64,000 bases of DNA. Origin: Nanobdellota archaeon (GTDB taxonomy: Archaea > Aenigmatarchaeota > Aenigmatarchaeia > QMZP01). The translations under genes and the position numbers were made by a program. Location of the stretch: positions 3,028-67,027 of the forward strand of contig JBDRJQ010000020.1 in assembly GCA_043814765.1 (NCBI GenBank). The letters are read 5' to 3'. Positions within the stretch are counted from its first letter, which is position 1. Each line of letters begins with the position of its first letter. Shown piece after piece: positions 3,581 to 64,000 of this stretch. The notes under the pieces were generated by a model. The model ran no database searches. It was not told the DNA's origin and saw only the letters and a program-made list of their open reading frames with translations.

Positions 3581-3676
3581 CCTTTGAATTATGTTCTATA
3601 ATTAGAGTTGAGATATTTAAGTCTTGGCTCAAAAGGGTAATTTTTAAATACAATAGTTAAAATTCAATAGATTGAC

Positions 3677-3892
3677 ATGTCTGCGACAGCTACAACTGGT
3701 GCTGCATTGATTATAATAGCAATAGTCATAGCATCTGCTTGGGGAATATGGGTGTTTATAATAGAACCAGAGATACCAATCCTCATACGTGCTATCATGC
3801 TTATAATTGGTCTAGGATTTGTTGCGCTTTTATCTGCTTTGATAGTTGAGAGAGTCAAGGACATGAAGAAGGAACACTACCCTAAAAGGTAA
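3677..3892 (+). CDS. small membrane protein
   Basis: The 71-aa product has two hydrophobic spans, and the gene is co-oriented with the downstream YbjQ gene. An antisense ORF at 3664..3864 is the alternative reading. Confidence 0.4.
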   Translation: MSATATTGAALIIIAIVIASAWGIWVFIIEPEIPILIRAIMLIIGLGFVALLSALIVERVKDMKKEHYPKR

Positions 3893-3907
3893 GGAGGCTA
3901 TGGTAAT

Positions 3908-4222
3908 ATGCTAGTAGCTACAACAGAAACAGTTGAAGGTAAGAAGATTACAGAAAATCTAGGCCTTGTTAAGGGCAACACGGTGCGCGCAAAACACATT
4001 GGAAAGGACATAGTTGCCGGTTTTAGAAATATTGTGGGCGGAGAGATAAAAGAATACACTGAAATGATTATAGAAGCTCGAGAAGATGCATTAAAAAGAA
4101 TGATAGAAGACGCAAAAAAGAAAGGAGCAGATGCAATAGTGGGAACAAGATTTACCACGTCAATGATAACAAGTGGTGCTGCAGAGCTCTTGGTTTATGG
4201 AACTGCTGTGAAAGTGAAGTAG
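3908..4222 (+). CDS. YbjQ/UPF0145 family protein
   Basis: Family-typical full-length pattern: TTETVEGKKI...GNTVRAKHIGKDIVAGFRNIVGGEI..Y...EAR..A..RM...A...GADAIVGTRF. Confidence 0.75.
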   Translation: MLVATTETVEGKKITENLGLVKGNTVRAKHIGKDIVAGFRNIVGGEIKEYTEMIIEAREDALKRMIEDAKKKGADAIVGTRFTTSMITSGAAELLVYGTAVKVK

Positions 4223-8902: not shown

Positions 8903-9011
8903 TTTACTTCGGTTTAAACCGAAGCAATACGAAACCAGTAGCAATAATAACCTCTATGGTGATGATTTTTGGCTAAATTTATAAAGGCTAATCTCAAATA
9001 TCATTGATTCA

Positions 9012-20339: not shown

Positions 20340-20347
20340 GCGATTTT

Positions 20348-21108
20348 ATGATTAACACTAATGCAATATACGTTTTGTGGCTGAGAGAAGTGAAGAAATT
20401 CATCAGAAACAAGTCGAGGATAATTGGAATGCTCGGCATGCCATTATTCTTTTTGGCCTTCCTTGGCATAGGATTTTCAAACATGCCTGTTACAGGCATG
20501 TCAGGAGTCGATTATCTATCATTTCTCATACCAGGCATAATCACGATGGGAATGGTTTTCACTTCAATGTTCGCAGGCATTTCTGTCTTGTGGGACAGGC
20601 AATTCGGCTTTCTGAAAGAAATCATGGTTGCTCCTGTCAAAGAGTTTCCATAGTTATAGGCAGAGTTCTAGGCGGAGCAACAACTTCACTAGCGCAAGGA
20701 ATAATGATACTCATTATAGGATTGCTAGTAGGATTTCAAATAACCAGCATACTAGGCTTTTTCATATCCATTTTGTTCATGCTTCTGCTTTCAGCCACGT
20801 TCATAGGCATAGGCCTTATAATAGCGTCAAAAATGAAAGACATGCAGGGCTTTCAGCTGATTGTTAATTTCCTTGTGTTGCCTCTGGTTTTCCTCTCAGG
20901 AGCACTTTTCCCTGTGGACAATCTGCCTGGATTTGTCAAAACATTGACATACTTGAATCCAATAACTTATGGTGTGGATGGCATCAGAGCTTCACTTATA
21001 GGAGTTTCATCACTTCCAATACTATATAATCTTGCAGCATTGATTGTGTTTTCATCTGTAATGGTTTTTCTTGGTGCATATTTCTTTGACAGAAGCGACA
21101 ACGTTTAA
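20348..21108 (+). pseudogene. ABC-2 type permease interrupted by a single-nucleotide frameshift
   Basis: ORF 20348..20653 ends ...IMVAPVKEFP*. The protein continues in another frame from 20641 as RVSIVIGRVLGGATTS... Adding one A to the AAA run at 20639..20641 restores VAPVKRVSIVIGRVLGG. Confidence 0.7.
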
Positions 21109-21142
21109 AAGAGTAATTTCACAAATATATAGTAGTGATTAT

Positions 21143-21913
21143 ATGGAACTCAAAAAACTTTTAGTAATGCTAGTCGTTCTAGCGTTCTTAATTCCTACAG
21201 CAATTGCTGACGGATCTGATTCAGGTAACGGTGCACAAACAAGCAGCAGTGAAACAACTGAACGTGGTGAAGAAAACCAAGTGACAGACGATTCTGTTGT
21301 CACTGACAACAGTTCAGATGATCTAGTAATAGCTCCTAATAAAAACCAGCAACAAACACAAAACACAGGAGATTCCGGCCAGCTAAAAGTCACTAACACA
21401 GAACAAGTGAAAGCAAAAACACTTTCTGGTTTGACTCAATCCATTCAAAACAGAAACCAAGAGATGAATCAAGAAATGGAATCTTTAGGCCAGACACAGC
21501 AAAATGTTTTACAAAACCAGAATAAGGTGAGACTGGCAGTTCATGCCTTTCTTGCAATGGAAGATTTGGTTGGTGGCATAGGCAAGAATGTTTCAGAAAT
21601 AGCCAGAGAATTTGACAATTCTATGCAAAAGACAGTTCAAGCTGAAGAAAGAATGCAAACAAGGAACATCTTCATGTTTTTCTTCTTCGGTGGCGATGAA
21701 GTTTCTGCTGCTGAAATAGAAGAAGAACTCAACATGAATCAGAACAGAATGGAAAAATTGCAGGAATTAAAGGAGCAATGCCAGTGCAATGAGGAATTAA
21801 AAAACATGTTTCAGGAACAGATGCAGAACATAGAGATGGAACAAACAAGGCTTCGCGAACTGGCGCAAGAGCATAATATGAACAAAGGATTGTTTGGTTG
21901 GTTGTTCAAGTAA
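21143..21913 (+). CDS. secreted Gln/Asn/Glu-rich protein
   Basis: The signal-like N-terminus MELKKLLVMLVVLAFLIPTAIA is followed by low-complexity, coiled-coil-like sequence. Confidence 0.5.
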   Translation: MELKKLLVMLVVLAFLIPTAIADGSDSGNGAQTSSSETTERGEENQVTDDSVVTDNSSDDLVIAPNKNQQQTQNTGDSGQLKVTNTEQVKAKTLSGLTQSIQNRNQEMNQEMESLGQTQQNVLQNQNKVRLAVHAFLAMEDLVGGIGKNVSEIAREFDNSMQKTVQAEERMQTRNIFMFFFFGGDEVSAAEIEEELNMNQNRMEKLQELKEQCQCNEELKNMFQEQMQNIEMEQTRLRELAQEHNMNKGLFGWLFK

Positions 21914-47851: not shown

Positions 47852-50281
47852 TTATAACCCTTCTATTTCTATTGTTCTTCTTTTCATCGAAGGGTATATA
47901 ATGAACATTATAATTACTATCACAAAAGCAGCTGCTGCAGCTATTATCAGCCATGGTATTTCTATGCATGGCATGGCGCAGGGACCACCACAATCCACAC
48001 CTGCTTCATACTCATCCTGTATGCCGTTAAGGCATGCATCACACTGAGCGTCATATTTGTCTGTCTTTCCGTCACAGTTGTCATCCTGTTCGTTTCCGCA
48101 TAATTCATGAGGAGCAGCTTTTACAGCAGTTATGCATGATTCCCATAGATAGTTTTCACCACATATTGATACGCCCTTTTCGCATATTCCTATATCAGTT
48201 CCGCAGGTTCTTGTTTCTCCTGCACTGCAGCATTCTGAATTTTCATCTACCTGCCCGTCACAATCATCATCAATACCGTTGCAGCTTTCTTTTGTGGGTT
48301 CTTCACCACCATAACACTGGCACTGCGCATATAGCGCACTAGCTTGAAAACCAACATTATCTATCTTTCCATCACAGTTGTCATCCTTTTGGTTGCATAT
48401 CTCATCTATTGGTCCTACTTCACCATAACACTCGCTCCACATGCCGCCTGAACAGACTGATAAGCCTTTTTTACATATGCCAACTTCAGATCCTCCGCAC
48501 TCCCTAGTTTCACCAGATACGCATAAGCAGCCGGATTCATCTACCTGTCCGTCACAATCATTATCTAAATTATCGCACACCTCTGTTGATGATAAAACGC
48601 CGCCAATACATTCACCCCAAACACCGTTTGTATTGCATATTTTGTAGCCTTGTTGACAGACACCAATATTGCTACCACAAGAAATGTTAGTTCCTGCTGC
48701 GCAAATCGTATTAATACATATGTTGGCTGTACATGTTTGATTGTTAGAACAGCCGCAAGCATCACAGTTATTAATCAGATTTCCATCATCACAATAAAGG
48801 GGCTTGGTTGCTGAACATTCGCCGTGCAATGTTCCGTCAGAGCATTCCTGCGGCGGAATATCTGAAACTTTTATATTGAATAATATAGTGTCTGTAGATA
48901 TTTTGTTGATGCTGGTGTCTTCATACCATATTTTCCATGCGATTGTTGAGCCTTCAGCAATCGTGCTGCTTGACCAGTCAAAAACCGTAGTCACAGGCGT
49001 TGCAACACCTCCGCAATCATAGGGGGATCCATATGTGCCGTCAGTTATGTTTACCCATGTGCCTGACTCGTTTGTGGCTAATACAGCTTGCAATAGGCCT
49101 GTTTCATCCGTACCCTCTGCTTCTAGCTCATTGATATCAATTCCGTCTGCAAAAATTGCATCATAATGCTGTTTTTGGTTTTTCCATGTTGGCGGATTCT
49201 CATCAACAGATTCTTCTTCATCACTTAATACATAAAATGCTGGAGCATCATGTTGATTGTTATATGCTGTCTTTATCCAGTCTGCCGACCTCTTTGTTGT
49301 TGATAATCTTATTTCATCTGCCTCTCCGTTATAATTTCCACCCAAGTCCCCTCTTGAATGTATCTTTACCGAGCTTATTCCACCAAAACCGCTGATATCA
49401 GATCGGCTGTCCTTCAAATCACCGTCAATATAAAGTGCTATGGTATTTGTCCCGTCGAATGTGAAACATAAATAGTGCCATTCCCCATCTGATATTATGT
49501 TGTTTCCATCTATCGTCATCGAACGCATCCATACTCCACCATTCTGGTAGCCGAGTATCCAGTCTGATGAGTATCCTCCAATGGCGTGCGTCTGCACGAT
49601 AAGGTATTTGTTTCCAGGTGATGTGTCTTTCGTCCACATAGATGCTGTAAATTCGCCTCCGCCTGAGAAATCATAATCCTGATTTGTGTCTACATAGCCA
49701 GTATCGCTTGTGAAACTCTGTGCTCTGTCTATCTGTCCGGTTGTTGTTTCTTGTGGCTTGTTTTCTGATGCCTTTGAGCCGTTGCTTAGCCCAGCACTGT
49801 CTTCTACTGTGGATGTCGTTAAGTCATCCATATGGTAAACAAGCTTGTAATTGTTGCTCCATGTTCCTGCTGAATTTGACTGGTCTGCCGCACCATTATT
49901 CCCATAATACATATAGATTTCAGTGTCTATTGATAGTGTTGGCACTTCAACATATGCTTCCAAGAACTTTGTTTCTGTATCAGAGTACCTGACTATTTCA
50001 TGGTCTAGCTTCGTTCCACTCGAGTCTACAAACACTATATCATAAGCGTTTGCGTTTGCCTTTCCAAATAAAGGGTTGTCTTGGTCTGTTATTTCTATAA
50101 GAACTGGGAAATTCACAAAGTTCACTGATCCTTCTATCTTGTCATTGTTTATTGTCACCTTTTGCCTGTACTGCCAGTTTTCATTCCACCATGCAGCTTG
50201 AGCATTTACACCACTATAAAAAATAACACTGTTCATAACTATCATAACTATGACTAAAAATGCGAGTTTTTTCAGTGTCAT
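47852..50281 (-). CDS. large surface protein: DUF2341-like N-domain + LamG/concanavalin-like domain + Cys-rich CDGxDNxCDG repeats + C-terminal TM anchor
   Basis: The signal peptide is followed by WWNENWQYRQKVTI...NFPVLIEI, then GEWHYLCFTFDG...LYIDG. Repeats are CDNLDNDCDGQVDE / CNQKDDNCDGKIDN / CNGIDDDCDGQVDE. The C-terminus is WLIIAAAAAFVIVIIMFII. Confidence 0.7.
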   Translation of the reverse strand: MTLKKLAFLVIVMIVMNSVIFYSGVNAQAAWWNENWQYRQKVTINNDKIEGSVNFVNFPVLIEITDQDNPLFGKANANAYDIVFVDSSGTKLDHEIVRYSDTETKFLEAYVEVPTLSIDTEIYMYYGNNGAADQSNSAGTWSNNYKLVYHMDDLTTSTVEDSAGLSNGSKASENKPQETTTGQIDRAQSFTSDTGYVDTNQDYDFSGGGEFTASMWTKDTSPGNKYLIVQTHAIGGYSSDWILGYQNGGVWMRSMTIDGNNIISDGEWHYLCFTFDGTNTIALYIDGDLKDSRSDISGFGGISSVKIHSRGDLGGNYNGEADEIRLSTTKRSADWIKTAYNNQHDAPAFYVLSDEEESVDENPPTWKNQKQHYDAIFADGIDINELEAEGTDETGLLQAVLATNESGTWVNITDGTYGSPYDCGGVATPVTTVFDWSSSTIAEGSTIAWKIWYEDTSINKISTDTILFNIKVSDIPPQECSDGTLHGECSATKPLYCDDGNLINNCDACGCSNNQTCTANICINTICAAGTNISCGSNIGVCQQGYKICNTNGVWGECIGGVLSSTEVCDNLDNDCDGQVDESGCLCVSGETRECGGSEVGICKKGLSVCSGGMWSECYGEVGPIDEICNQKDDNCDGKIDNVGFQASALYAQCQCYGGEEPTKESCNGIDDDCDGQVDENSECCSAGETRTCGTDIGICEKGVSICGENYLWESCITAVKAAPHELCGNEQDDNCDGKTDKYDAQCDACLNGIQDEYEAGVDCGGPCAMPCIEIPWLIIAAAAAFVIVIIMFIIYPSMKRRTIEIEGL

Positions 50282-50321
50282 ATATGTTAATTATTGGTTG
50301 GGTCCTGTTAAATATAATGTC

Positions 50322-50588
50322 CTAACCAGACTGTTTTGCAGAATTAATATATCTCCATTTAACATATTCTATTGGATCATCATATTCCTCATCTATATCA
50401 CTGTCAGTTGGATAATTGAACCCTACTGAGAATGGGACCAAGGCGCTCACAGCTGTTGTGGAAGAGAGCTCAGAAGCTAGAATAGTTCCCAATTCCTGCT
50501 CATTGGGCACCAACGTGGTTGTACCAGCACTTATGCTGTTTCCATCAATATAACTCCCTACAGATACACTATCAAAGTGGCCAAATCA
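50322..50588 (-). pseudogene. start-less ORF remnant between two surface-protein genes
   Basis: The open frame HFDSVSVGSYIDGNSISAGTTTLVPNEQ...EYVKWRYINSAKQSG* has no ATG (only a TTG at 50513). Its 3' end duplicates the 3' end of the neighbouring gene. Confidence 0.3.
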
Positions 50589-50644
50589 TCACTAACAACA
50601 TATTTATGGTTTGTTCAGAAGAGTAACCAGACTGTTTTGCAGAA

Positions 50645-52855
50645 TTAATATTTCCACTTTTCCTTTATGTCACTCCATGATTCTTCTTCTGATTTGCCCA
50701 TTGATTTGAATACAACGAAAACCAGTACGATTATTATAACAATAACCAATATGACTGCAATCAGCATTATGTCTAGATTTTCTAGGAATTTGAAAGGGCC
50801 TTCACATTCAGCAACACAGACTCCGCCGCAATCAATACCGTCTTCATTGCTATCCTTTATATCATTGAAACAGTTGACTGTTGGTAATGAACAGTCAGTG
50901 TCCTGTCCATCAACATATCCGTCACAGTCGTCATCAATGCCATTCGAACACTGCTCACCACTACCGGGGTTTATACCATAAAAATTATCATTGCAGTCAG
51001 GCATTCCTGGGTAATAACTGGCTGAGTTGGTTTTAGATCCGCATGTTGTGTAATAATCAGAATCTGAGTCGTATGCCTCGTCTATTTCATTGTTGCAGTT
51101 GTTATCCTTACCATCGCAGATCTCTGCTGTTGGACCAACATCGCCAACACAATCATCCCATTCTCCATCATTGCATTCCCTCTCTCCAAGACTGCATTCT
51201 CCTATGTCGGAGTCACCGCAACTCTCTTTTATTGGTTTGCCGTCTTCCTCGTCTATGTCGCCGTCACAGTTGTTGTCAATACCGTCGCACTTCTCGGCTT
51301 TGCCTGGATTTATGTTTTTATCAGAATCATCACAATCGTCTATCCCTGCATAGTATTTATCGCCATCTGCATCAATTTTGTCAACAATTGTTTTAACATC
51401 AAGAGTAAAGTCTTTATCAGCAAACGATGAATTGAATGACTTGTCTATTGCCTTGCAGTTCCATGTATAGTTGCCAGGTGTAACATTTTCAACTAAGAAA
51501 GTGTGTTCAGCTGTTTTAACTTTATCAAAGTTTATCTGCTCCTTTGCGGTCTTGTTCTCACCTTCTGCTCCAAAATACAGAATAAGCGAAGCAATGGAAA
51601 AAGTATCAGAAGCGCTGCAGGTAAGGTTTATATCGCCCTCAGCAACAGTTGCATTGAAAACAGGTGATACCAATGTTACTTCCGGTGCTGTATTGTCTAG
51701 CTTAGAAGACTTTACATCGAATTCTATAATTTCACTGCCATCTATGTTAACATTTGTCGAATAATCTAAGAAATTAACAGTGTGTGGATTGAAACTCAAT
51801 TCTATTTCCTTAGAATTATCATACCTTACGTTCTTTTCAACAACAGCATGAACACCTGTTAAACCATCTTCGTCTGTAACGTCTACTTCAAATGCAGGGC
51901 CGCCAGCATTGTTTTTTACCTCAACCTCAACACCTTCCTGTGGTACACTGTCTACAAGAATCTTAAATTGAGTGTACCATTTTATTACCAGGCTTGCATC
52001 AAAGAACATGGTATCAGGATGAAACACGTATCCATTATCAAGAGTAACATTAAATAGCTCAACTCCTTTTGAAAAACGAATGTATACGCTTGGTCCACCG
52101 CTGGCTGCACCAACAGCTGTTTCAATTATGCTGTCTTTTATAAGAGTATTATGCGAATATGACAATAGGATTCCTTCTCCAGAGGGTACTGTGTAAGGAG
52201 GTGGTCCCCAACCAGCACCTTGTATTCTGTTGTTTTTTATAATATTATCATCAGAATAAACCAGTCTTATAGCGCGAAAGTATGAGTTTAATATTTGATT
52301 ACTGTCTACTATATTTTCTGCAGAATATTCATCATCTTCAGCATTGCCCATAATTTCTATGGATGTTGGATTGAGTCTGAAATAATTGTCTACTATGCTC
52401 ACACCCTTTGTTCTTAAAAGTTTTACGCCCTTACTGCCACCATTACCTAGAAAACTATTACCTGATATCAATCCACTGGTTATAGTAGGAGTAGCACCAA
52501 GCGTTCTCTCGCCGTTGAATAATACACCCATGCCGAAATTATTTGTTTGGCAATTTCTTATTTCAACATTATCATATCCGTTGTTAACTATAAAAGCTCC
52601 TGTGTTTAGTGCATCCGGATCAATTTTCCATACATCAAAAAGAGCATTGTTGCAATCGATTACTATGTCGTCGTCACCGACTATAAGAAACCCTGTTTCT
52701 GGCGGATTTGTTACTGTGCACGTCATGTATTCAAAAGTCACATCTTCTGTTATTGTGACTGGTTCACTAGGGCACGGAGCCAACTGCGCTTCTGCACTGG
52801 AAACCATAGAAGCAACTAGAATTATAGCAAAAACAGAGAATAACAGTTTTTTCAT
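50645..52855 (-). CDS. large surface protein: right-handed parallel beta-helix + Ig-like region + Cys-rich CDGxDNxCDG repeats + C-terminal TM anchor
   Basis: Signal is MKKLLFSVFAIILVASMVSSAEA. Beta-helix repeats include IVDNYF..., IKNNRI... Further motifs are DADGDKYYAGIDDCDDSDKNINPGKAEKCDGIDNNCDGDIDE and TM IAVILVIVIIIVLVFVVF. Confidence 0.7.
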   Translation of the reverse strand: MKKLLFSVFAIILVASMVSSAEAQLAPCPSEPVTITEDVTFEYMTCTVTNPPETGFLIVGDDDIVIDCNNALFDVWKIDPDALNTGAFIVNNGYDNVEIRNCQTNNFGMGVLFNGERTLGATPTITSGLISGNSFLGNGGSKGVKLLRTKGVSIVDNYFRLNPTSIEIMGNAEDDEYSAENIVDSNQILNSYFRAIRLVYSDDNIIKNNRIQGAGWGPPPYTVPSGEGILLSYSHNTLIKDSIIETAVGAASGGPSVYIRFSKGVELFNVTLDNGYVFHPDTMFFDASLVIKWYTQFKILVDSVPQEGVEVEVKNNAGGPAFEVDVTDEDGLTGVHAVVEKNVRYDNSKEIELSFNPHTVNFLDYSTNVNIDGSEIIEFDVKSSKLDNTAPEVTLVSPVFNATVAEGDINLTCSASDTFSIASLILYFGAEGENKTAKEQINFDKVKTAEHTFLVENVTPGNYTWNCKAIDKSFNSSFADKDFTLDVKTIVDKIDADGDKYYAGIDDCDDSDKNINPGKAEKCDGIDNNCDGDIDEEDGKPIKESCGDSDIGECSLGERECNDGEWDDCVGDVGPTAEICDGKDNNCNNEIDEAYDSDSDYYTTCGSKTNSASYYPGMPDCNDNFYGINPGSGEQCSNGIDDDCDGYVDGQDTDCSLPTVNCFNDIKDSNEDGIDCGGVCVAECEGPFKFLENLDIMLIAVILVIVIIIVLVFVVFKSMGKSEEESWSDIKEKWKY

Positions 52856-52897
52856 ATATAATATATAGTTGTTCAATGCTTAAAAATAATAACACTT

Positions 52898-55513
52898 TCA
52901 ACGCCATTTTCTGCGCAATATTCTTTGATATCCTTTGCTTAGCTCTTCCCAGGACTTTTCATTTCCGCCCCTAATCGCAAGAACTACTGCTAATACCACT
53001 ATGCCAACTGCAATTACTATTAAAATCAAAACTATCAGCAAAGTATTTTCACCGAAAACTGGAGGCAAAGGAGGTTCTTCCATACAGTCAGTGTCCTGTC
53101 CGTCAACATATCCGTCACAGTCATCGTCAAGACTGTTGTAACAATTCTCAAATTCTGGGTTTACTTCACCCACGCATTCTGACCATCCTGTATACAAACA
53201 CTGTTTTGTTCCCTGCCTGCATATGCCAACACCAGCATTTTGCGAACCAACTCCACACGGTGCTGATTTTCCGATAGGGGAACAACATGAAAGATCATCA
53301 TCTGGTTCACCGTCACAGTTGTTATCCAAACCGTCACATATCTCTGCTGAAGGACCAATATCGCCAATACAATCACTCCACTCACCATCACTGCAGTATT
53401 TTGTTCCCTGTGAGCACGTTCCTGTTGATTTACCACAAGACAATTCAAGCTGGCTTAAATCATCTACTGCACCACTGCAGTCATTGTCAATGCCATCACA
53501 TTCCTCATCTTCACCTGGATTTATATCAGCATTATCATCATCGCAATCATCTATGTTTGCGTAGTAGTTATCACCATCTTCGTCTACCATAGTTGATGCT
53601 TCCTCAAATATATTGAGAGTAAAATTTGCACTTGCAAATATCTCATTAAACGCGTTGTCAAACGCCTTACAGTTCCAGATGTATGTTGCTTTGCCTAGAT
53701 TTGTCATGTTGAATGTAACGTTTGCACTGGTTTTATCAGAGAACTCTACACCGCTCGTTGATTTGAAAGTTCCTGATTCGTTCCAGAAAAAGTACATACT
53801 ATAAAGACCAGCATCTGCATTGGCTTCACATGTAAACTGCATGTTTCCGGGCAAAGAGATTTTGTTGTTACCAGGAGCATGAAGAGTTACAGATAAAATC
53901 TCTGTGTCACAGTCACCGTCATTTGCTGAAGTGCAGTCAGCTGGACAACAGCCATCACTAGTACCTATGCATTGGGTTATTGCTGGATAAGAGCACGTTT
54001 TTGGAGTGCCTGAACAAGTGTTTGTTGTGCACGCATTATTATCATTGCAGTCCGCATCACCGCTGCACTCATCTTCAGGACTGCAGTCCTGCGGGCAGTT
54101 GGAGTATGTCTCGCTTCCTTCGCATGTTCCGTCACCGCAAACAGTTCCAACCACTAAAACCTTGGTTTCAGTCTTGTCTATCAGTATGCCGTTAACATTG
54201 TAGGTAAGGAAAGTGGCTCTGTGTGGATTATAAGATACTCCAGCAGGTCCTCCCCAATTAGGATCATTAATGTATTTTTTTTCCACTGCTTCAAATTCAG
54301 CAGTTAATCCATTTGAGACAATTTGACCAGACCACACCAATTGGTTGAATTGATTGTTATTGTATAAATTAACTGTTGTTCCCTGCGGAAGCGGATTATC
54401 ATCTTTTGCTATATTAAGTTTGACAAACCAGCCTATTGATACGCTTGAATACAAACTAGTTCCAAACAAAATAGGTTCAGGATTAGTTGCATTCATAACT
54501 TCAGTGTCAGGCGCTCCACTCAGATATAGAACATTTCCATTACCTTGAGGACTCTTTATAATATTGCTTTCAAACCTGTTGTTTTTGGCCCCGCTTACAA
54601 CAACTGATCCACCTGTCTGGGAACCAGAATTTGTGATTGTGTTACCTGTTATATTGTTATTATCAGAATGCTGTCCTATACCTATTGCGTACGGAGCAGA
54701 ACCAGCTATAACATTAGAATATACACTAGTCCCTCCGCCTGCACCCATAAGTCTTATGCCTCTACTGTTTGCAGTTAATAAGTTGTTGTTTATAGCAATA
54801 CTTCCTACACGGAGATCCATTGCTATTTGGTTGTTTTTGAAAGTGTTATGTCTTATACCACCACTGTTTATTACAGTGTCTGTGTCAATAATTTCAAATT
54901 CAACTTTGTTTTCTGATAGAATACTTGTCGAATAGGTTACTTCTATTATATAAACATCAACAGGGCCTTTCGATCCAGTCAATGTGTACATATCACCCTC
55001 TGTTACAGATTTAAATTTTCCGTCGATTGTTATGCCAGCTACTGTATCACTTCCTATGTAGTTAACTGTGACATCATGCGTTACGCCGTTTACTGCAACC
55101 TGTTCAGTGTATCCTGAGTTTATTATCACTCTTTCATAAATATGGGAAGCGAGTATACCAACATCAAAACCATCTATTATGCAGTTTTCCAAAGTTAAAC
55201 CGTTATAACCGTTATTTACTATGAATTTCCCCTCATTACCAGGGATGCTATCATTGACAGGTTTTATTGTAGCTCCGTGACAGTTTATGGAAACATCATC
55301 TGCAGCTATTCTGTAGAAACCAATATCAGGAGCATTAATGTAACAAATAACATTATCTTTATTTTCTTGGTTAATGTTAACATCACTGGTTACATCCTTA
55401 TATCCATTAATAGGCGGACAATCAGCCTTTGATATTTGTGATGAAATATTAGGAAGCATTAATGCAAGAATTATAAAAAATGACACCAAAATCAGTACTT
55501 TATGGGTTTTCAT
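52898..55513 (-). CDS. large surface protein, paralogous architecture (beta-helix + Cys-rich repeats + C-terminal TM anchor)
   Basis: A signal peptide is followed by beta-helix repeats (NNQIAMD, NNNLLTANS, GNTITNSG, ESNIIKS). Further motifs are CGDGTCEGSETYSNCPQDC, DEDGDNYYANIDDCDDDNADINPGEDEECDGIDNDCSG and TM LLIVLILIVIAVGIVVLAVVLAI. Confidence 0.7.
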   Translation of the reverse strand: MKTHKVLILVSFFIILALMLPNISSQISKADCPPINGYKDVTSDVNINQENKDNVICYINAPDIGFYRIAADDVSINCHGATIKPVNDSIPGNEGKFIVNNGYNGLTLENCIIDGFDVGILASHIYERVIINSGYTEQVAVNGVTHDVTVNYIGSDTVAGITIDGKFKSVTEGDMYTLTGSKGPVDVYIIEVTYSTSILSENKVEFEIIDTDTVINSGGIRHNTFKNNQIAMDLRVGSIAINNNLLTANSRGIRLMGAGGGTSVYSNVIAGSAPYAIGIGQHSDNNNITGNTITNSGSQTGGSVVVSGAKNNRFESNIIKSPQGNGNVLYLSGAPDTEVMNATNPEPILFGTSLYSSVSIGWFVKLNIAKDDNPLPQGTTVNLYNNNQFNQLVWSGQIVSNGLTAEFEAVEKKYINDPNWGGPAGVSYNPHRATFLTYNVNGILIDKTETKVLVVGTVCGDGTCEGSETYSNCPQDCSPEDECSGDADCNDNNACTTNTCSGTPKTCSYPAITQCIGTSDGCCPADCTSANDGDCDTEILSVTLHAPGNNKISLPGNMQFTCEANADAGLYSMYFFWNESGTFKSTSGVEFSDKTSANVTFNMTNLGKATYIWNCKAFDNAFNEIFASANFTLNIFEEASTMVDEDGDNYYANIDDCDDDNADINPGEDEECDGIDNDCSGAVDDLSQLELSCGKSTGTCSQGTKYCSDGEWSDCIGDIGPSAEICDGLDNNCDGEPDDDLSCCSPIGKSAPCGVGSQNAGVGICRQGTKQCLYTGWSECVGEVNPEFENCYNSLDDDCDGYVDGQDTDCMEEPPLPPVFGENTLLIVLILIVIAVGIVVLAVVLAIRGGNEKSWEELSKGYQRILRRKWR

Positions 55514-57519: not shown

Positions 57520-58347
57520 ATGCTCTTCTGGAGAAGGTTCAAATCTAACGTTTCGTGCAGGTGGACAGAGGCATGGACATTCAAGGTTGATGTATTCCTG
57601 AATATAGTAAACACAGTTCTAGCTGTGTTCATGTGGTATTTCATGTCCATAATGATACATCCAGCTATACTAGGATATGTAAATGTCGGTTACCTGCCAT
57701 TCATTATGGTTGGTAGTGTTGCGCTCTTCTTTGCCAGCAGAGTAACAGCAAGCTTCTCAGGAAGTTTTTACAGAGATATAGAAAGCGGTATATTTAAATT
57801 GGTGTACTTATCCGATATGAATTTAATACATTATTTTTTCATGAACTTCTTTACAGGACTGATATTTGATTCTTTCTTGATATTGGTTCCAATGATATCA
57901 GCATACTTCTTTTTGATACAGATAGTGGCATACGAGACAACGACATTTTTCAGTATGGGTATTCTATTGACAATATTAGCGTCATTCGCAATATTTGTGG
58001 TTGGTCAGCTAGGATTCACCATGATGACTGTGGGATCCAAACTGTACCTTAAGAAAGGAGATCCTATAAGCTTTACCATAGAAAAGCTAAATCAATTCTT
58101 CTCCGGACAGGTATTTCCACTAAGGTTGCTTCCTGCATTTTTGGCATTCCTGCCTACGGTGTTGCCTGCTGCTTACGTGATTCTGATTTGGAGGGATTCT
58201 CTCTTCTTGGGCAAAACAATCTTTGACGGAACAATGACTAACATCATGATTGGAGGAATTGTAGTAAGCGCTGTTATATTTGCTGTAGGGTTGCTCTTCT
58301 TTTACAAAGGCATAGAGAGGGCCAAGGTGGAGGGAAGATGGCTGTAA
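57520..58347 (+). CDS. ABC-2 type transporter permease
   Basis: About six hydrophobic spans. A 10-nt overlap with the downstream ATPase gene. Confidence 0.55.
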   Translation: MLFWRRFKSNVSCRWTEAWTFKVDVFLNIVNTVLAVFMWYFMSIMIHPAILGYVNVGYLPFIMVGSVALFFASRVTASFSGSFYRDIESGIFKLVYLSDMNLIHYFFMNFFTGLIFDSFLILVPMISAYFFLIQIVAYETTTFFSMGILLTILASFAIFVVGQLGFTMMTVGSKLYLKKGDPISFTIEKLNQFFSGQVFPLRLLPAFLAFLPTVLPAAYVILIWRDSLFLGKTIFDGTMTNIMIGGIVVSAVIFAVGLLFFYKGIERAKVEGRWL

Positions 58348-59348
58348 AAAATGATATAGAAGTCAGAAACCTGAGAAAGAATTACTATGAGTACAAGGTT
58401 TTCAAAAAAGGAAAACTTCTGACAAGGGCACTGAAAGGAGTTTCGTTTAATGTAAAACGTGGTGACTTTATCGGACTTCTGGGGCTCAACGGCGCAGGCA
58501 AAACAACACTGATGAAGATACTTACAACCAATATGAGGGAGACCTCAGGCAAAGTGCTAGTTAACGGATTTGATGTGAACAGTGATCAGAGGAAGGTAAG
58601 GAAGAGCATATCTTGGATGTATGGTGTGGATTATTATGGTGTTGGGTGGGCATCTGTTCAGAAGAACCTAGAACTCGCTGCCAACATACTAGGATTAGAA
58701 AAGAAAAAATCAAAGCAAATCATAGACAGGACAATAAAAGAATTTGGCTTGCAGAAGTTTAGAAAGCTGGATGTATGGAGGCTCAGTACTGGTTTAAGAG
58801 CAAGATATTCGCTTGCTGTTGCCATGATGAAAAACCCAAAAATTCTTTTCCTTGATGAACCGCTGATAGGTCTTGACGTGGAGAGCAAGGATGCTGTAAG
58901 AAAAAAACTGAATGAACTGAACCAAAATGGATTGACAATATTGTACACATCACACCAGCTAAATGAAGTAGAAAAAGTCTGTAAAAAAATCATACTGATA
59001 AATGACGGAAAAATAGTTCATCAGGGATATACAGACGACCTGAAGAACAGGTACAGGAAAATAAATCTGTTAGAGATTCGCTGCAAGACAGAGGATCTGG
59101 TTGGCATCAGGAAATCCCTTCTCAGAGAAAAAAACATAATAAACGACATAGAGGTTCTAGGAAGCAGGGGAAACGAACATCAGCTCAAGATCTATACAAA
59201 TGTTGATTCAAGCGAAGCTCTGCTACCCATAGGCAAGCTCTTCAAAAACAAAAACGTTATCCTGCAGAGCCTTAATGTTGGAACAGTTGATCTTGAGACT
59301 GTCTTCAAGAAGGTTATAAAGAAGAAGTTATTTAAATCCTTTTATTAA
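58338..59348 (+). CDS. ABC transporter ATP-binding protein
   Basis: Walker A is GLNGAGKTT, the signature-like motif is LSTGLRARY and Walker B is LFLDEPL. Confidence 0.8.
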   Translation: MAVKNDIEVRNLRKNYYEYKVFKKGKLLTRALKGVSFNVKRGDFIGLLGLNGAGKTTLMKILTTNMRETSGKVLVNGFDVNSDQRKVRKSISWMYGVDYYGVGWASVQKNLELAANILGLEKKKSKQIIDRTIKEFGLQKFRKLDVWRLSTGLRARYSLAVAMMKNPKILFLDEPLIGLDVESKDAVRKKLNELNQNGLTILYTSHQLNEVEKVCKKIILINDGKIVHQGYTDDLKNRYRKINLLEIRCKTEDLVGIRKSLLREKNIINDIEVLGSRGNEHQLKIYTNVDSSEALLPIGKLFKNKNVILQSLNVGTVDLETVFKKVIKKKLFKSFY

Positions 59349-59378
59349 ACATTTAATATCAAAGTTTGAGGTGAATAA

Positions 59379-59507
59379 ATGCCTAAAGAGAAAGTTGTTA
59401 AAAAAAAGGTTTATGCAGAAAATGTTGAAGTCAAAAAACTAAAAGACGGCAATTTCCGGCTAATCGTTAAGGGTTTAAGAAAAAAAAATGACGGAGGTAA
59501 CAAATAA
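59379..59507 (+). CDS. small peptide P1 (42 aa) with shared leader-like motif
   Basis: Hand-translated as MPKEKVVKKKVYAENVEVKKLKDGNFRLIVKGLRKKNDGGNK. GAGGTGA lies 4 nt upstream of the ATG. It is not in the ORF track because it is under 60 aa. Confidence 0.45.
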   Translation: MPKEKVVKKKVYAENVEVKKLKDGNFRLIVKGLRKKNDGGNK

Positions 59508-59508
59508 T

Positions 59509-59730
59509 ATGAAAGATATACATTTTAAGATAAAAGCCTCTAACGTAAATGTTAAGAAACTAGAAAACGGTACCTTTAAAATAGTCTGTGACAACATAAA
59601 GGAGCTTGAAAAAACATCTGAAAAGAGTAAATGGAAAAGCTCATATGGTAAAAAGGAAATAACAATATATCGTGGAAATCATGTTTTCAAAAAAGACATG
59701 AAGACAAAAAATATAAAGAAAATAAGGTGA
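59509..59730 (+). CDS. small peptide P2 (73 aa) with shared leader-like motif
   Basis: MKDIHFKIKASNVNVKKLENGTFKIVCDN... GGAGGT lies 10 nt upstream of this ATG. The track start at 59488 is the alternative. Confidence 0.45.
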   Translation: MKDIHFKIKASNVNVKKLENGTFKIVCDNIKELEKTSEKSKWKSSYGKKEITIYRGNHVFKKDMKTKNIKKIR

Positions 59731-59734
59731 TAAA

Positions 59735-59899
59735 ATAGTAAATGAAGTTATTGATGTTAAAGCATCAAAGGTTGAAGTAAGGAAATTGAGAGATGGTGTA
59801 TTTGAAGTTATAATATACGGAGCAAAGGGTGATCTAGAATGCTGTATGGATTATGCTCCATGTGATGCTACAATACAAGTCAGTATACCTGCAAGATAA
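59735..59899 (+). CDS. candidate RiPP precursor P3: leader-like motif + Cys-rich core, apparent ATA start
   Basis: The frame reads (I)VNEVIDVKASKVEVRKLRDGVFEVIIYGAKGDLECCMDYAPCDATIQVSIPAR*. AGGTGA plus 4 nt precedes the ATA, mirroring the SD-ATG geometry of P1. No ATG, GTG or TTG lies upstream of the conserved motif. Confidence 0.45.
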   Translation: MVNEVIDVKASKVEVRKLRDGVFEVIIYGAKGDLECCMDYAPCDATIQVSIPAR

Positions 59900-59966
59900 T
59901 TGTATAATAATCAAGGGTGAGCCAGAATGCTGTATGGATTATGCTCCATGTGATGCTACAATACAA
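59837..59966 (+). repeat. tandem direct repeat of the core-encoding segment (two identical 42-nt copies, 59837..59878 and 59925..59966)
   Basis: GAATGCTGTATGGATTATGCTCCATGTGATGCTACAATACAA occurs twice. Similarity extends upstream (ATAATA...AAGGGTGA) with a 6-nt in-frame indel. Confidence 0.9.
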
Positions 59967-59984
59967 TTTGATTCAATGAGATAA
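59853..59984 (+). CDS. possible second core peptide P4 (…IIIKGEPECCMDYAPCDATIQFDSMR), no leader homology
   Basis: The only in-frame ATG (59853) lies inside the P3 core. This may be a non-functional partial duplicate. Confidence 0.25.
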   Translation: MLHVMLQYKSVYLQDNCIIIKGEPECCMDYAPCDATIQFDSMR

Positions 59985-60033
59985 ACAATCAGCTAAGATA
60001 GTGGAAATCCTCAATTAAACTTTATTATTTAAT

Positions 60034-61428
60034 GTGGTATTTATGATTAATCTATGTGAAACGATTATTGAATTCTCTGAAAAAGTATCGCCTAAATCTA
60101 AATATACATTTTCTAAATATCTAAATGTTATACCTTACAAATCTAATGTAATCTTGCTATCCGGAAGAACTGGTCGCATAATAGTTTGCACAAACAATGA
60201 ATGGAAACTTGTTAAAAAATATCTTAGATCGCCAAACAACAATGAAGATTTTTTTTATCCTTTCATTGAGACTGGAATGATTGTTAATAAAGAATTTGAT
60301 GAATTTGCTTATTTACTAAACAAAACAAACGAAAATAGGAAAGAATTAATAGAAAGAACCTATGATGGATCAAGAAGTGGTGGGATTTGGCTGACTCTTG
60401 GTAATTCATGTAATCTAAAATGTATTTATTGCTATCTGGAGAAAAACACCAGTTTAATGAGTTTTGAAACAATTAATGACGCCTTAGAGCAATTTCATGA
60501 TGGTTTTGTTAAAGGTAAACTTAAAAACGCACAGATTGCAATTGCTGGAGGAGAACCACTTTTATACAAGGATAGAGTAAAGCATATTTTTATCAAAAGT
60601 AAAATGCTGTTCAAAGAGGATTTTAATAAAGTTATTTTTTTCATAATAACCAATGGTACACTTATAGATGATGATTTGTTGAAATTCATAAAAACGAATA
60701 AGATAAATGTCCTGTTTCAAATAAGTATAGACGGTAATGAGGATATTCATAACAAAAGACGCATGTATGCAGATGGCAAAGGCACATATAATACAATTAT
60801 AAAAAATCTAAAAAGGGTAGCTGAATATGGAAACTTGATAATAATTAGAATACATGCCGACGAATCTAATTACTCGAAGATGGATAAGTTTTTTCATGAT
60901 ATTAAACCAATCCTCAATTCAAAAGTAACTGTTGACTTTATCGCACCAGTATGTGTTGATAAAGACGTTAAGTATGACAGTAAGCAATCATTTATAAAAT
61001 TTGATAAAATGGTAGAATCATTTAATAGTTTTGTTGATAGGAATAAATTAAAACTTTATAATGAAACAGAAACCGATTACAATCCGTTAAGTTCTACAAG
61101 TTATTTAGGACGTAATATATCCTTTTGTTCTGGTTTTGTCGGACAAAAATTTTGGCTAGATCCAAAAGGAAACTGGCTTGCATGTCCCATGGAAGAGTGG
61201 GTTATAGGCGATATAAAAAATGGCATTTCATATTCAAAAGTAAAAGAATTAAACAACATGGTAAAGGAAAACAACAAATGTTTGAGGTGTCCTAGATATT
61301 TTTTTTGCTCTAAACGTGTATGTCATAGAGTTATTTTAACTGGCATGGAAAAGCACACACCATTTATTAATAATAAAGATTTCAAATATATGGCAATAAA
61401 ATATGCAAAAAGTGCTGGTTTGGTATGA
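60034..61428 (+). CDS. radical SAM/SPASM peptide-modifying enzyme with PqqD/RRE-like N-terminal domain
   Basis: Contains GNSCNLKCIYCY (CX3CX2C), IAGGEPL, C-terminal FCSGF...ACPME...CLRCPRYFFCSKRVCH (SPASM-like CX2CX5CX4C) and N-terminal SNVILLSGRTGRIIVCTNNEWKLVKKYL. Confidence 0.75.
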   Translation: MVFMINLCETIIEFSEKVSPKSKYTFSKYLNVIPYKSNVILLSGRTGRIIVCTNNEWKLVKKYLRSPNNNEDFFYPFIETGMIVNKEFDEFAYLLNKTNENRKELIERTYDGSRSGGIWLTLGNSCNLKCIYCYLEKNTSLMSFETINDALEQFHDGFVKGKLKNAQIAIAGGEPLLYKDRVKHIFIKSKMLFKEDFNKVIFFIITNGTLIDDDLLKFIKTNKINVLFQISIDGNEDIHNKRRMYADGKGTYNTIIKNLKRVAEYGNLIIIRIHADESNYSKMDKFFHDIKPILNSKVTVDFIAPVCVDKDVKYDSKQSFIKFDKMVESFNSFVDRNKLKLYNETETDYNPLSSTSYLGRNISFCSGFVGQKFWLDPKGNWLACPMEEWVIGDIKNGISYSKVKELNNMVKENNKCLRCPRYFFCSKRVCHRVILTGMEKHTPFINNKDFKYMAIKYAKSAGLV

Positions 61429-63233
61429 AAAAAACAAAAAAAATATGTCTAGTTTCAATGCCCTTTAATAATGTTTTTTATCCCAATATACAATTAGCTA
61501 GCCTTAAGAGTTACATTAATCAGAACAGCCCAATAAACGTAGATCTTAAACACTTCAATCTTGATTTCTTCAATTTTATTTTAAGCTCCAAAGAAAAGAA
61601 AGAAACCATTCCATATTATAGTTTTTTTAATTCATATAGTAGAGATCTATACAATGGAGACATAGTCTTTGCATGTATGTATTATCCCAAGAAAATGAGT
61701 TCTATATTAGATGTAATATTCAACAAAAAAAACAAGACCACAAAACATAAGCACTGGAGAAAAGAACTTACAAGAAAAGAAACAATAAAAATTATCAACG
61801 ATTTTAAAAAATTCACTGAAGATTTAATAAAATCTGTAAACTGGAAGGATTATTTTTTAGTGGGATTCAGTTGCTCATTTGCTCAGCTATTTCCATCTAT
61901 TTACGCTGCAAAATTAATAAAAAAGGCAAATCCAGATATAAAAATAGTTTTTGGAGGCAATGTTGTTTTTGAAGAACAAGGAAAATACATCTTAAATGAA
62001 TTCAACGAAGTAGATTTTATAATTTCTGGTGAGGGTGAAAAACCCCTTTTAAAAATGATTAGTGATTTAACAAATAAAATAATCCCTGAAAGGTATATTG
62101 ATGGCAGCAAACAACTAGTTAAATTGGATAATTTACCACTACCAGACTATAATAAATTCTTTGAACAACATTCTCAACTAAAGATACCTTATTTGGTTTT
62201 AATGTTATATGCATCAAAAGGTTGTTTTTATAATAAATGTAGTTTTTGTAGCATGAATAAACAATACTCATCATACAGGATAAAGAATGTAAACAAAATG
62301 ATAGATGAAATTATTGAGTTAAAAAGAAAATATCCGAAAACTGTGAATTTTGCATTCACTGATAGCATGATACCAGAACCATACTTAATCAAATTTGCCA
62401 AAGAAATAATAAAAAGAAAAATAAAAATATCATTTTGGTTAGAACTAAAAGCAAATGCAAAAAAAGAGACAATAAAATTATTATCAAAGGCAGGCCTAAA
62501 AGGAGCGCAGATAGGAATAGAGTCATTTAATCAAAACATATTAGAGAGAATGAACAAAGGAACAACAGTAAAGCAAAACATTGAAACAATGAAAATTTTT
62601 GAAGAGCTTAACGTAAAGGTTAGTTCCAATATAATAACACGATTTTTGAACGTTGATAAAAAAGACATAATTAATACTTTTGAGGTACTAAAAAAATTAA
62701 AATACTATCATCCGCTAAGTGCCAGCATTTTAGATTATACTTACGGTTCAAAAGAACACGAAAAACTGGTAAAATCAGGTTCTTATATACTTGCAGATGA
62801 AGAATTGAACTACATAATATATGCAAATCTAGAAAAATACAATACCTTTCTTCCAATCATTCCTAAAAAACAAGATAATCTGAAAGAATGGAAAGCCGTA
62901 GAGAATTTTATCAACGAAGAAAGAAAAAAGAAAAGATTCATAAACAGCCTTCCAGGCATCTACTATAAAAAACACAAAAACAAGATAACAGTTTACGTCA
63001 ACTATAACAAAAAGCTTGTAGGAACAGATATCACTAAAAAAATAGACTTATTGATATTTAACTTTTGCGATTCATTCAAAAACATACAAGAAATACGTAA
63101 TTGTCTTTCTGGATATTCTAAAAAGGAGATAAGTGAGTCAATAGAGCGTTTATTGAAAAAAGAAATACTTATAGATATAGATGAAGATTATATGACACTG
63201 CCAGTGAAGTTTGACAAGTCTAAATGGAAATAA
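61425..63233 (+). CDS. radical SAM enzyme with cobalamin-binding-like N-domain (class B / RiPP-maturation C-methyltransferase-like)
   Basis: The N-terminus is ICLVSMPFNNVFYPNIQLASLKSYI, followed by IVFGGNVV and the cluster motif SKGCFYNKCSFCSMN. The start overlaps the upstream stop in an ATGA junction (4-nt overlap). Confidence 0.65.
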   Translation: MKKTKKICLVSMPFNNVFYPNIQLASLKSYINQNSPINVDLKHFNLDFFNFILSSKEKKETIPYYSFFNSYSRDLYNGDIVFACMYYPKKMSSILDVIFNKKNKTTKHKHWRKELTRKETIKIINDFKKFTEDLIKSVNWKDYFLVGFSCSFAQLFPSIYAAKLIKKANPDIKIVFGGNVVFEEQGKYILNEFNEVDFIISGEGEKPLLKMISDLTNKIIPERYIDGSKQLVKLDNLPLPDYNKFFEQHSQLKIPYLVLMLYASKGCFYNKCSFCSMNKQYSSYRIKNVNKMIDEIIELKRKYPKTVNFAFTDSMIPEPYLIKFAKEIIKRKIKISFWLELKANAKKETIKLLSKAGLKGAQIGIESFNQNILERMNKGTTVKQNIETMKIFEELNVKVSSNIITRFLNVDKKDIINTFEVLKKLKYYHPLSASILDYTYGSKEHEKLVKSGSYILADEELNYIIYANLEKYNTFLPIIPKKQDNLKEWKAVENFINEERKKKRFINSLPGIYYKKHKNKITVYVNYNKKLVGTDITKKIDLLIFNFCDSFKNIQEIRNCLSGYSKKEISESIERLLKKEILIDIDEDYMTLPVKFDKSKWK

Positions 63234-63236
63234 ATT

Positions 63237-64000
63237 ATGAAAATGTTAAAAATATGTCTGGTTTCCATGCCATTTCATACTGTTATCTATCCCGATGTTC
63301 AATTGTCAAATCTGAAGAGCTACATAAATTCTAAGAATAAAATTAATGCAGATTTAAAATATTTTAATTTGAATCTATTCTACTTTCTATCTAAAATTGG
63401 TTCAGAAAAAATGTACCTTAGGTGTCTTCATAATTATTATTCTCCAGATATGTGCTACGGTGATTTGTTTTATTCTTGTTTATATTACCCAGAAAAAAAG
63501 GATAATATAATAAACATAATTATGGATTCAAACGACAAATATTTCCACTCCCATAACTATCTAAGAAAACCATTTTCAAAAAAAGAAACGGTAAATTTTA
63601 TTAATGAATTAAAAAATGAGACTGACAAAATCATAAAGTCTGTGAATTGGAAAGATTATCTTATAGTTATACTTGGCTGTTCTTATGGACAGCTTTTCCC
63701 ATCACTTTATGCGGCAAAACTGATAAAGAAACTCAATCCATCAATTAAGATTTGTGTGTATGGTAATCTCATTTTCAAAGAATATGGAAACTACATATTA
63801 AACGAGTTTAGAGACATAGATTTTATTTTTTCAGGAGAAGACGAAAAAACGTTTTATAAATTAATTTATGATATAATTAACAACAGAAAACCTAATAAAA
63901 ACATAAACAATTTTAAGAATCATATTAAACTTGATCAACTACCTTTTACAGATTATAAGGACTTTTTTGAGAAATCTAATTTAATGGGTATTGAGCAGAA
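63237..64000 (+). CDS. second, paralogous radical SAM enzyme of the same type (N-terminal 254 aa only; continues beyond window)
   Basis: Hand-translated as MKMLKICLVSMPFHTVIYPDVQLSNLKSYI...SVNWKDYLIV...LYAAKLIKKLNPSIKICVYGN..., collinear with 61425..63233. It is absent from the ORF track because it is open-ended. Confidence 0.6.
   Translation, partial: MKMLKICLVSMPFHTVIYPDVQLSNLKSYINSKNKINADLKYFNLNLFYFLSKIGSEKMYLRCLHNYYSPDMCYGDLFYSCLYYPEKKDNIINIIMDSNDKYFHSHNYLRKPFSKKETVNFINELKNETDKIIKSVNWKDYLIVILGCSYGQLFPSLYAAKLIKKLNPSIKICVYGNLIFKEYGNYILNEFRDIDFIFSGEDEKTFYKLIYDIINNRKPNKNINNFKNHIKLDQLPFTDYKDFFEKSNLMGIEQ

Follow-up and report, generated by a model that had tools for sequence, protein, structure and literature searches.

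Archaea of the DPANN group are host-dependent, and a secreted, modified peptide could serve such cells in host interaction or in competition. The locus described here raises the question of whether one of these archaea carries the genes for a RiPP, a peptide synthesized on ribosomes and modified after translation, that is altered by radical S-adenosylmethionine (SAM) enzymes, as an original prediction made from the DNA alone had proposed. The locus lies at 57520-64000 of a 64,000-nucleotide stretch (the window, to which coordinates refer unless another contig is named) of contig JBDRJQ010000020.1 from a Nanoarchaeota (now Nanobdellota; DPANN) metagenome-assembled genome (GCA_043814765.1), and it comprises a putative transporter pair, four small open reading frames (ORF1 to ORF4), a radical SAM/SPASM enzyme and cobalamin (B12)-type radical SAM paralogs. 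To a RiPP-type cluster for peptide modification, probably gained by horizontal transfer, we give a probability of about 0.5. The cluster is plausible and may be partly decayed. The enzyme architecture and the gene grammar speak for the cluster that had been predicted, whereas the lack of a homologous locus or peptide, scores below the curated cut-offs and a frame-disrupted cysteine-containing precursor speak against it.

The ORF map of the window bore out the predicted layout, in which tightly packed genes, all on the + strand, fill 57520-64000 and four small ORFs lie inside 59379-59984. Neighboring genes overlap by 4-10 nt (10 nt between permease and ATPase, 4 nt between the SPASM enzyme and the first B12 paralog) or are 30-60 nt apart, which is operon-like spacing. 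What can be read directly from the locus is the order of its genes, their domain architectures and family affinities, and the fact that the leaders of the small genes are paralogous; the proposal made below builds on these features.

A radical SAM enzyme nearest to peptide maturases

The first of the enzyme genes (MFH1445129.1, 60043..61428, or from 60034, + strand) encodes a peptide-maturase-like radical SAM/SPASM protein with a match to PF04055 (65.9 bits), which has 461 residues if translation begins at the ATG at 60043 and 464 if it begins at the GTG at 60034. Among the NCBIfam models PapB (NF047865) was the best match, at 143.3 bits against an equivalog cut-off of 340, and further matches were found to CefB (115 bits), geopeptide (96 bits), CcpM (96 bits), SCIFF (80 bits) and Nif11-type models, as well as to the cyclophane-forming models YhhB (75 bits) and GrrM (56 bits). 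The original prediction had named housekeeping families, such as the sulfatase maturases, as the place where the enzymes might instead belong; the SPASM enzyme is nearer to the peptide maturases (143 bits with PapB vs 73 bits with the sulfatase maturase anSME), and a sulfatase-maturase or housekeeping identity was rejected on these scores and on the N-terminal domain described below, which anSME lacks.

By sequence, the nearest solved structure is that of the thioether synthase CteB (5WGG, E=8e-20). The CX3CX2C motif is present (CNLKCIYC), and its cysteines C123, C127 and C130 are invariant across a 32-sequence alignment. At the C-terminus, where a SPASM-type cysteine cluster had been predicted, six of the seven canonical cysteines were found, and the motifs CX13GX4C and CX2CX5CX4C are kept and align with the CteB cysteines; the Pfam SPASM model PF13186 gave no match in the enzyme.

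In an AlphaFold model of the enzyme (predicted local distance difference test score, pLDDT, 76), the N-terminus forms a beta3-alpha3 module with strands at residues 27-32, 35-40 and 46-50 and helices at 51-61, 68-76 and 87-108, all at pLDDT 80-89. The whole chain aligns by Foldseek to CteB, TigE and SuiB over 463-476 columns, and these three are RiPP maturases that bear a RiPP recognition element (RRE). Thus, the model predicts an RRE-radical SAM-SPASM architecture that is nearest to peptide maturases. This layout, together with the CX3CX2C, CX13GX4C and CX2CX5C motifs, is shared with the PapB, CteB and SCIFF (TIGR03974) maturases, and PapB/CteB-type clusters also resemble the locus in the Cys-containing small ORF that lies just upstream of the enzyme here.

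At least three B12-type radical SAM paralogs

Downstream of the SPASM enzyme lie two genes for TIGR03975-like, B12-binding radical SAM proteins: paralog a (602 residues, MFH1445130.1, 61425..63233, + strand) and paralog b (63237..64000, + strand), of which the N-terminal 254 residues are in the window while the gene runs on. The paralogy that had been claimed for two enzymes of about 600 residues stands, with paralog b 49% identical to paralog a, but the count was too low. A third paralog (P0002; MFH1445132.1, partial) is found on the source contig, and because paralog b is only 43% identical to it and the accessions MFH1445127-MFH1445132 are consecutive (ORF1, ORF2, the SPASM enzyme, paralog a, the unlisted 131, presumably paralog b, and the third paralog), there are at least three such genes. 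The last of them is cut by the contig end, so the cluster is incomplete.

Paralog a matches TIGR03975 over its full length (268.0 bits, residues 7-594 to model positions 1-606), albeit under the cut-off of 281.85, with a score three times that of the next model, and the N-terminal ~250 residues of paralog b reach 90 bits. This match agrees with the family of RiPP-maturation radical SAM C-methyltransferases that the original prediction had named, and we take TIGR03975 to correspond to the B12-dependent peptide C-methyltransferases of the PoyB/PoyC type. Both motifs that had been pointed out are present, KICLVSMPF..YP..QL..LKSYI at the N-terminus and SKGCFYNKCSFCSMN as the cluster motif, and paralog a has an invariant CX4CX2C motif. 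The profile searches that had been proposed as a check confirmed ABC_tran and Radical_SAM domains in the locus and left B12 binding borderline, with PF02310 at 31.7 bits in paralog a against a cut-off of 32.1. Weaker matches to BchE, HpnJ and lipid B12-radical SAM models were also seen.

In its structural model (pLDDT 89), the best fold matches of paralog a are OxsB, TsrM, MgmA, TokK and CysS, over 400-600 columns, from which a class B architecture, a cobalamin-binding Rossmann domain plus a radical SAM barrel, is predicted. The C-terminus of the model contains a confident beta3-alpha3 winged-helix (RRE-like) domain, and hhalign relates this domain weakly (probability 42%) to the N-terminal domain of the SPASM enzyme. 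Pfam, relaxed to E<=10, found no PqqD/RRE match in either the SPASM N-terminal or the B12 C-terminal domain, and the PqqD/RRE assignment made here uses predicted structure and hhalign. Compared by family model, the B12 enzymes share with the TIGR03975 class the full-length alignment, the MPF…P…QL…L..Y and CX4CX2C motifs, the cobalamin-radical SAM fold and the C-terminal winged helix, and they differ from it in the sub-cut-off score and in occurring as at least three tandem paralogs. In published work sactisynthases diverge in sequence, and a 'PoyB group' is mentioned (PMC10288494).

Small genes with a common leader-like motif

Upstream of the enzymes, ORF1 (42 residues, MFH1445127.1, 59379..59507, + strand) carries the leader-like VEVKKLKDGNFRLIV and has a GAGGTG ribosome-binding site (RBS), and ORF2 (73 residues, MFH1445128.1, 59509..59730, + strand) carries the leader-like VNVKKLENGTFKIV and has a GGAGGT RBS. 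The ORF3 frame (59738..59899, + strand), which is absent from the annotation of the Prokaryotic Genome Annotation Pipeline (PGAP), contains the leader-like VEVRKLRDGVFEVII and then the core GDLECCMDYAPCDATIQVSIPAR. ORF4 (43 residues as listed, 59853..59984, + strand) holds a second Cys core (…IIIKGEPECCMDYAPCDATIQFDSMR) and lacks the leader motif; its N-terminus is the ORF3 core read out of frame.

ORF1, ORF2 and ORF3 have in common the N-terminal motif A-x2-V-x-V-x-K-L-x2-G-x-F, with the leader consensus V-x-V-(K/R)-K-L-x-(D/N)-G-x-F-x-(I/V), and their tails are unrelated. Pairwise leader scores among the three beat 1999-2000 of 2000 shuffles, and the motif was found nowhere else in the 64-kb window. 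At the invariant residues the codons vary (A GCA/GCC, V GTT/GTA/GTC, L CTA/TTG, G GGC/GGT, F TTC/TTT), and this synonymous variation indicates constraint at the protein level. Judged from their sequences, ORF1 to ORF3 are paralogs with the leader/core pattern that is expected for RiPP precursors. The possibility that ORF1 to ORF4 are pieces of one larger known gene was discarded, as no family match was found in any frame and ORF1 and ORF2 have their own RBS and start.

A small ORF ending in a three-Cys core was part of the original prediction; the core ECCMDYAPCDATIQ is present, but it occurs twice and the two copies are in different frames. It is encoded, as KG(DL/EP)ECCMDYAPCDATIQ, by a 54-nt direct repeat (59825-59878 and 59913-59966, + strand), the copies of which are 96% identical overall and identical in the final 42 nt. 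The tail of ORF2, by comparison, has 45 residues and is Lys-rich, containing W, Y, H and F; this ORF is intact, with no obvious core.

Several further features of this small-gene array were observed. The frames step by +1 at each successive small ORF, from ORF1 to ORF2, ORF3 and ORF4. An A9 run (59480-59488) sits at the ORF1/ORF2 junction, where losing one A would fuse both into a two-leader protein. In addition, a 19-nt imperfect inverted repeat, 84% complementary (59349-59367 and 60017-60035), flanks the whole array, with its left arm exactly at a drop in GC content.

A possible route to a modified peptide

For the preferred interpretation, we infer the pairing of substrates with enzymes, the thioether and methylation chemistry, export and a biological role as follows. 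Three paralogous small genes would encode peptides with a common N-terminal leader, which would dock on the RRE-like domains at the N-terminus of the SPASM enzyme and the C-terminus of the B12 enzymes. The SPASM enzyme would then cross-link the core, most likely by forming Cys thioethers in ECCMDYAPCDATIQ, the three tandem cobalamin-type paralogs would C-methylate unactivated carbons, and the adjoining ATP-binding cassette (ABC) pair may serve for export of the product or for immunity. Thioethers at the three Cys are favored because of the best matches of the SPASM enzyme, and, given its YhhB and GrrM matches, C-C or C-O chemistry on the aromatic-rich tail of ORF2 is conceivable. The cross-link may be of the S-C alpha, S-C beta/gamma or C-C type. 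Set against the ranthipeptide/sactipeptide-type systems, the candidate core is without CX3D repeats and has a single DX3C.

The locus brings together, in a form compact enough for testing, a single SPASM enzyme, B12 paralogs numbering three and as many peptides with the common leader. What lowers its value is that it is a singleton without comparative support, its truncation at the contig end, the disrupted frame of the best precursor and the fact that genome mining already flags the class.

Enzyme-level evidence against the cluster

The results from here to the end of the section on the transporter pair include those that weigh against a peptide-modification cluster, each given beside the rival explanation, if any, on which it bears. 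No family score (PapB, TIGR03975 or TIGR01188) reaches its curated cut-off. The SPASM enzyme has no close relatives, the best being only 31% identical over half its length, and it differs from the PapB/CteB type in this identity of at most 31%, in having CX4C where CX3C is expected and in the loss of the last SPASM cysteine, the seventh of the predicted cluster, which is nearly invariant at column 572 of the 32-sequence alignment. No gene for a leader protease was seen within 57520-64000, on a contig that stops inside the third B12 paralog.

Disrupted frames and the possibility of decay

The state of the precursor genes raises the likeliest of the rival explanations, namely that this is a RiPP cluster by descent that is now decaying or inactive, its precursor array having been broken by truncation, a 1-nt indel at the ORF3 start and a frame-shifting duplication while the enzymes are recent enough to be intact still. 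We consider this rather unlikely; the observations in its favor are as follows. ORF1 has a short, Cys-free tail, its stop coming 10 residues past the leader, and it lacks a usable core. The ORF3 frame is open from 59726, with no ATG, GTG or TTG before a TTG at 59786 that is itself inside the leader, and an ATG at 59742 with an AGGTGA RBS resembling that of ORF1 sits 1 nt out of the conserved-leader frame. The 88-nt spacing of the core repeat places the second Cys core in the +1 frame, with no leader, and PGAP called ORF1 and ORF2 and skipped ORF3 and ORF4.

The frame offsets may stem from true mutation or from errors in assembling the repeat locally; a regulatory function is less likely. An error-ridden assembly in general was rejected as their cause: each of the other adjacent ORF pairs tested in the window turned out to consist of separate genes without disruption. 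Indels do not therefore pervade the assembly and real mutations are likelier, which also favors decay. Against decay stand at least three long enzyme ORFs that are intact at 27% GC, where stops arise readily (the 461- and 602-residue ORFs are intact at 27-29% GC), an ORF2 that is intact with its RBS, possible starts for ORF3 at the TTG at 59786 and for ORF4 at the ATG at 59853, and the possibility of local assembly errors at the tandem repeat. Because the Cys-core genes are frame-disrupted as assembled, present-day production of that peptide is doubtful, be the cluster decaying or not.

Relatives of the cluster and the possibility of another substrate

The original prediction had proposed a survey of synteny in related genomes, and conservation of the small ORFs beside homologous enzymes was not found in the collections searched. 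No peptide-enzyme locus was detected in GTDB genomes, JGI metagenomes or IMG/VR. When the SPASM protein was used to look for synteny across GTDB genomes, no related locus came up, and a profile built from three B12-radical SAM sequences and run on these genomes as well as on JGI metagenomes and IMG/VR retrieved generic B12-radical SAM proteins alone, at 21-38% identity. By tblastn of the cluster proteins and peptides on 30 loci, no SPASM or peptide partner was found; the single IMG/VR match was outside that screen. The ORF3 peptide has no homologue in 5.8 billion proteins, and a profile of the leader, run on 1.84 billion representatives, recovered the ORFs themselves (ORF1, ORF2) plus one protein, P0166, which was rejected as a leader relative since it is a 778-residue repetitive protein in which 12 weak stretches sum to a spurious score. 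As the peptides and the SPASM enzyme are without close relatives, synteny cannot be shown. The sole mid-range relative of the B12 enzymes (P0003, 43% identity) is encoded on an unclassified, 2,051-nt Logan contig of 27.9% GC (L031). This contig, too short to give context, carries the identical 19 nt TTAAGAAATATCTTTGACA at 1-19 and 2033-2051, which may reflect a tandem repeat or a path that closes on itself in the assembly graph.

For the nearest TIGR03975 relatives that could be placed, genomic context was read. All seven examined relatives that score above the TIGR03975 cut-off lack a SPASM enzyme or called peptide gene nearby. Three of them are bacterial proteins (367-378 bits), each encoded directly 5' of a 388-399-residue S1-domain protein (L001 10001-13013; L032 182-3537; L039 664-3767); the neighbors on the long L001 contig are housekeeping genes, and the L032 and L039 contigs are too short for context. 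The conserved S1 pairing suggests a non-RiPP role, possibly protein- or RNA-linked, for part of TIGR03975. The archaeal-looking members always adjoin a gene for a 323-325-residue protein with two AsnC-type helix-turn-helix/NirDL-like domains, which resembles siroheme decarboxylase, in divergent or convergent orientation (L033 2094-4937; L034 6898-9896; L036 6971-9899; L041 4067-6945; L042 1027-3905). These contigs, none of which has a SPASM or small peptide gene called near the member, were judged archaeal from neighboring Cdc6, primase, GINS and GGR genes, and four of these members (those on L033, L034, L036 and L041) are above the cut-off. With a further locus, on contig L040, included, eight relatives' loci show no called precursor-like gene, whereas here leader-sharing ORFs lie 1.4 kb upstream.

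The L040 locus (7018-9785) encodes a TIGR03975-like B12-radical SAM protein (264 bits) paired with a 321-residue radical SAM protein. This pair sits in a mobile or defense island with an OLD-type TOPRIM/AAA protein and a UvrD-like helicase (Gabija-like), transposases and toxin-antitoxin genes.

A sponge-microbiome study threw out antiSMASH matches to the TIGR03975 rule as probable false positives. By itself a TIGR03975 match points only poorly to a RiPP cluster, the nearest members found here being in conserved contexts that have neither a SPASM enzyme nor a called peptide gene. Since TIGR03975 relatives occur in contexts where no peptide gene is called, family membership alone is no proof of RiPP function, and the RiPP case here therefore rests on the local gene combination.

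These relatives speak for a second rival explanation, in which the radical SAM enzymes act on another substrate (such as a lipid, a tetrapyrrole or a protein) and not on the adjacent small ORFs, these being either small proteins with no relation to the enzymes or non-functional duplications; the weaker BchE, HpnJ and lipid B12-radical SAM matches and the absence of a Cys-rich core from both ORF1 and ORF2 point the same way. We regard this as unlikely, because the SPASM enzyme has an RRE-like domain and resembles peptide maturases and not sulfatase or cofactor enzymes, the B12 enzymes end in a winged-helix domain and score three times higher with TIGR03975 than with the next model, and three leader-sharing small ORFs immediately upstream would otherwise be hard to explain.

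At the other extreme, the locus could be a functional cluster for a new archaeal RiPP class, with a thioether-cross-linked, multiply C-methylated product and an unseen leader family, that gives a DPANN episymbiont a peptide acting against or on its host. We hold this to be distinctly unlikely. In a variant of this explanation the frame offsets would be regulatory, either through phase variation or through programmed +1 frameshifting that yields a two-core precursor, for which the A9 tract at ORF1/ORF2, the ORF3 ATG offset and, in the stretch separating the cores, an AGA-TAA +1 site are candidates.

Base composition and the origin of the block

At ~59350, directly after the ATPase gene, GC content falls from 0.35-0.41 to 0.26-0.31. 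The radical SAM genes have a third-codon-position GC content (GC3) of 0.24-0.27, and their GC at first and second positions (GC1 and GC2) is far under that of host genes. From this, the peptide-enzyme block looks to have been acquired from elsewhere, as the preferred interpretation has it. Three compositional classes, those of the ABC pair, the host genes and the radical SAM block, meet inside 7 kb.

A chimeric join, or else mobile DNA inserted very recently from an organism of lower GC, that makes the whole block from ~59350 foreign and the term 'archaeal RiPP' a misattribution would fit the abrupt GC fall, the low GC1 and GC2, the position at the contig end, the sole mid-range relative (P0003) on an unclassified low-GC contig and the imperfect inverted repeat around the small ORFs, but it is very unlikely given a seamless join (a 30-nt gap, the same strand and a host-type GAGGTG RBS), the absence of transposase or integrase genes and of a repeat at the GC boundary, an enzyme GC3 near the lower host range (0.26-0.36) and a K/N/I-rich amino-acid composition that accounts for much of the GC shift.

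The transporter pair

Of the predicted ABC-2 transporter, the ATPase was borne out as an ABC protein. The DrrA-like ATPase (58338..59348, + strand) matches PF00005 above cut-off at 95.5 bits and TIGR01188 (drrA) at 210.7 bits, under the NCBIfam cut-off of 312. The putative ABC-2-type permease (275 residues, 57520..58347, + strand), whose membership in the cluster is uncertain, has six hydrophobic segments but gave no Pfam or NCBIfam match even at E<=1, ABC2_membrane included; it has a weak local match (36 residues, E=7e-4, motif FxSGxxFPxxxLPxF) to an ABC2_membrane protein encoded at 20377-21105. A DrrA-like ATPase and a six-segment, 275-residue membrane protein encoded by overlapping genes recall the DrrAB-type transporters of RiPP export and immunity, from which the pair differs in the failure of the permease to match ABC2_membrane, in the sub-cut-off ATPase and in a codon composition that departs from the enzyme block.

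GC3 is 0.45 in the permease gene and 0.43 in the ATPase gene, unlike the enzymes and above the host range, and the pair may be an unrelated neighbor. This contrast in composition implies that the transporter and the peptide-enzyme block differ in history. Membership of the transporter in the cluster is plausible from the 30-nt gap and shared strand, yet unproven.

A second ABC transporter operon occupies 19332-21913 of the window and consists of an ATPase, an ABC2_membrane permease (PF01061, 88 bits) and a 280-residue ORF without a family match.

Relation to known archaeal clusters

To our knowledge, no radical SAM-modified peptide has been characterized from any archaeon. A survey that applied antiSMASH to 11,644 archaeal genomes reported 221 biosynthetic gene clusters in Nanoarchaeota; throughout DPANN it predicted clusters of the ranthipeptide and sactipeptide types, and by its count the validated archaeal cases before its own work were two lanthipeptides only (PMC12144867). 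The novelty that the original prediction claimed was therefore overstated, in that radical SAM RiPP clusters have already been predicted in DPANN (PMC12144867), although none of them is experimentally characterized. Subtilosin-like sboA-albA-albC loci have been described in Thermococcus (bioRxiv 10.64898/2026.07.27.741052). The present locus is like the antiSMASH-predicted archaeal clusters and the Thermococcus loci in its archaeal host, thioether-type radical SAM maturase, small precursor, ABC component and predicted function, and unlike them in a peptide family without a homologue, three B12-radical SAM paralogs and a host known from a DPANN metagenome-assembled genome. It is a new orphan of a cluster type that has already been mined and not a new category.

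Other features of the window

The archaeal origin of the DNA that had been proposed is borne out by an intron-containing tRNA, the origin-associated proteins OapB and OapC, archease and RtcB. Genes for OapC, OapB and a GTPase, an archaeal origin-associated set, are grouped at 2176-3580 (- strand), and a replication origin may sit beside them at ~3600-4200, a region without ORFs of at least 110 residues. A scan for sigma-70 promoters and intrinsic terminators gave background levels only, such models being not applicable to archaea. At 47852-55513 (- strand) three large predicted surface proteins of 809, 743 and 871 residues are encoded in a row. These proteins have repeated Cys-rich MopE-type metal-binding motifs and C-terminal hydrophobic anchors, and they also contain beta-helix/NosD, Big_7, laminin-G and DUF2341 domains.

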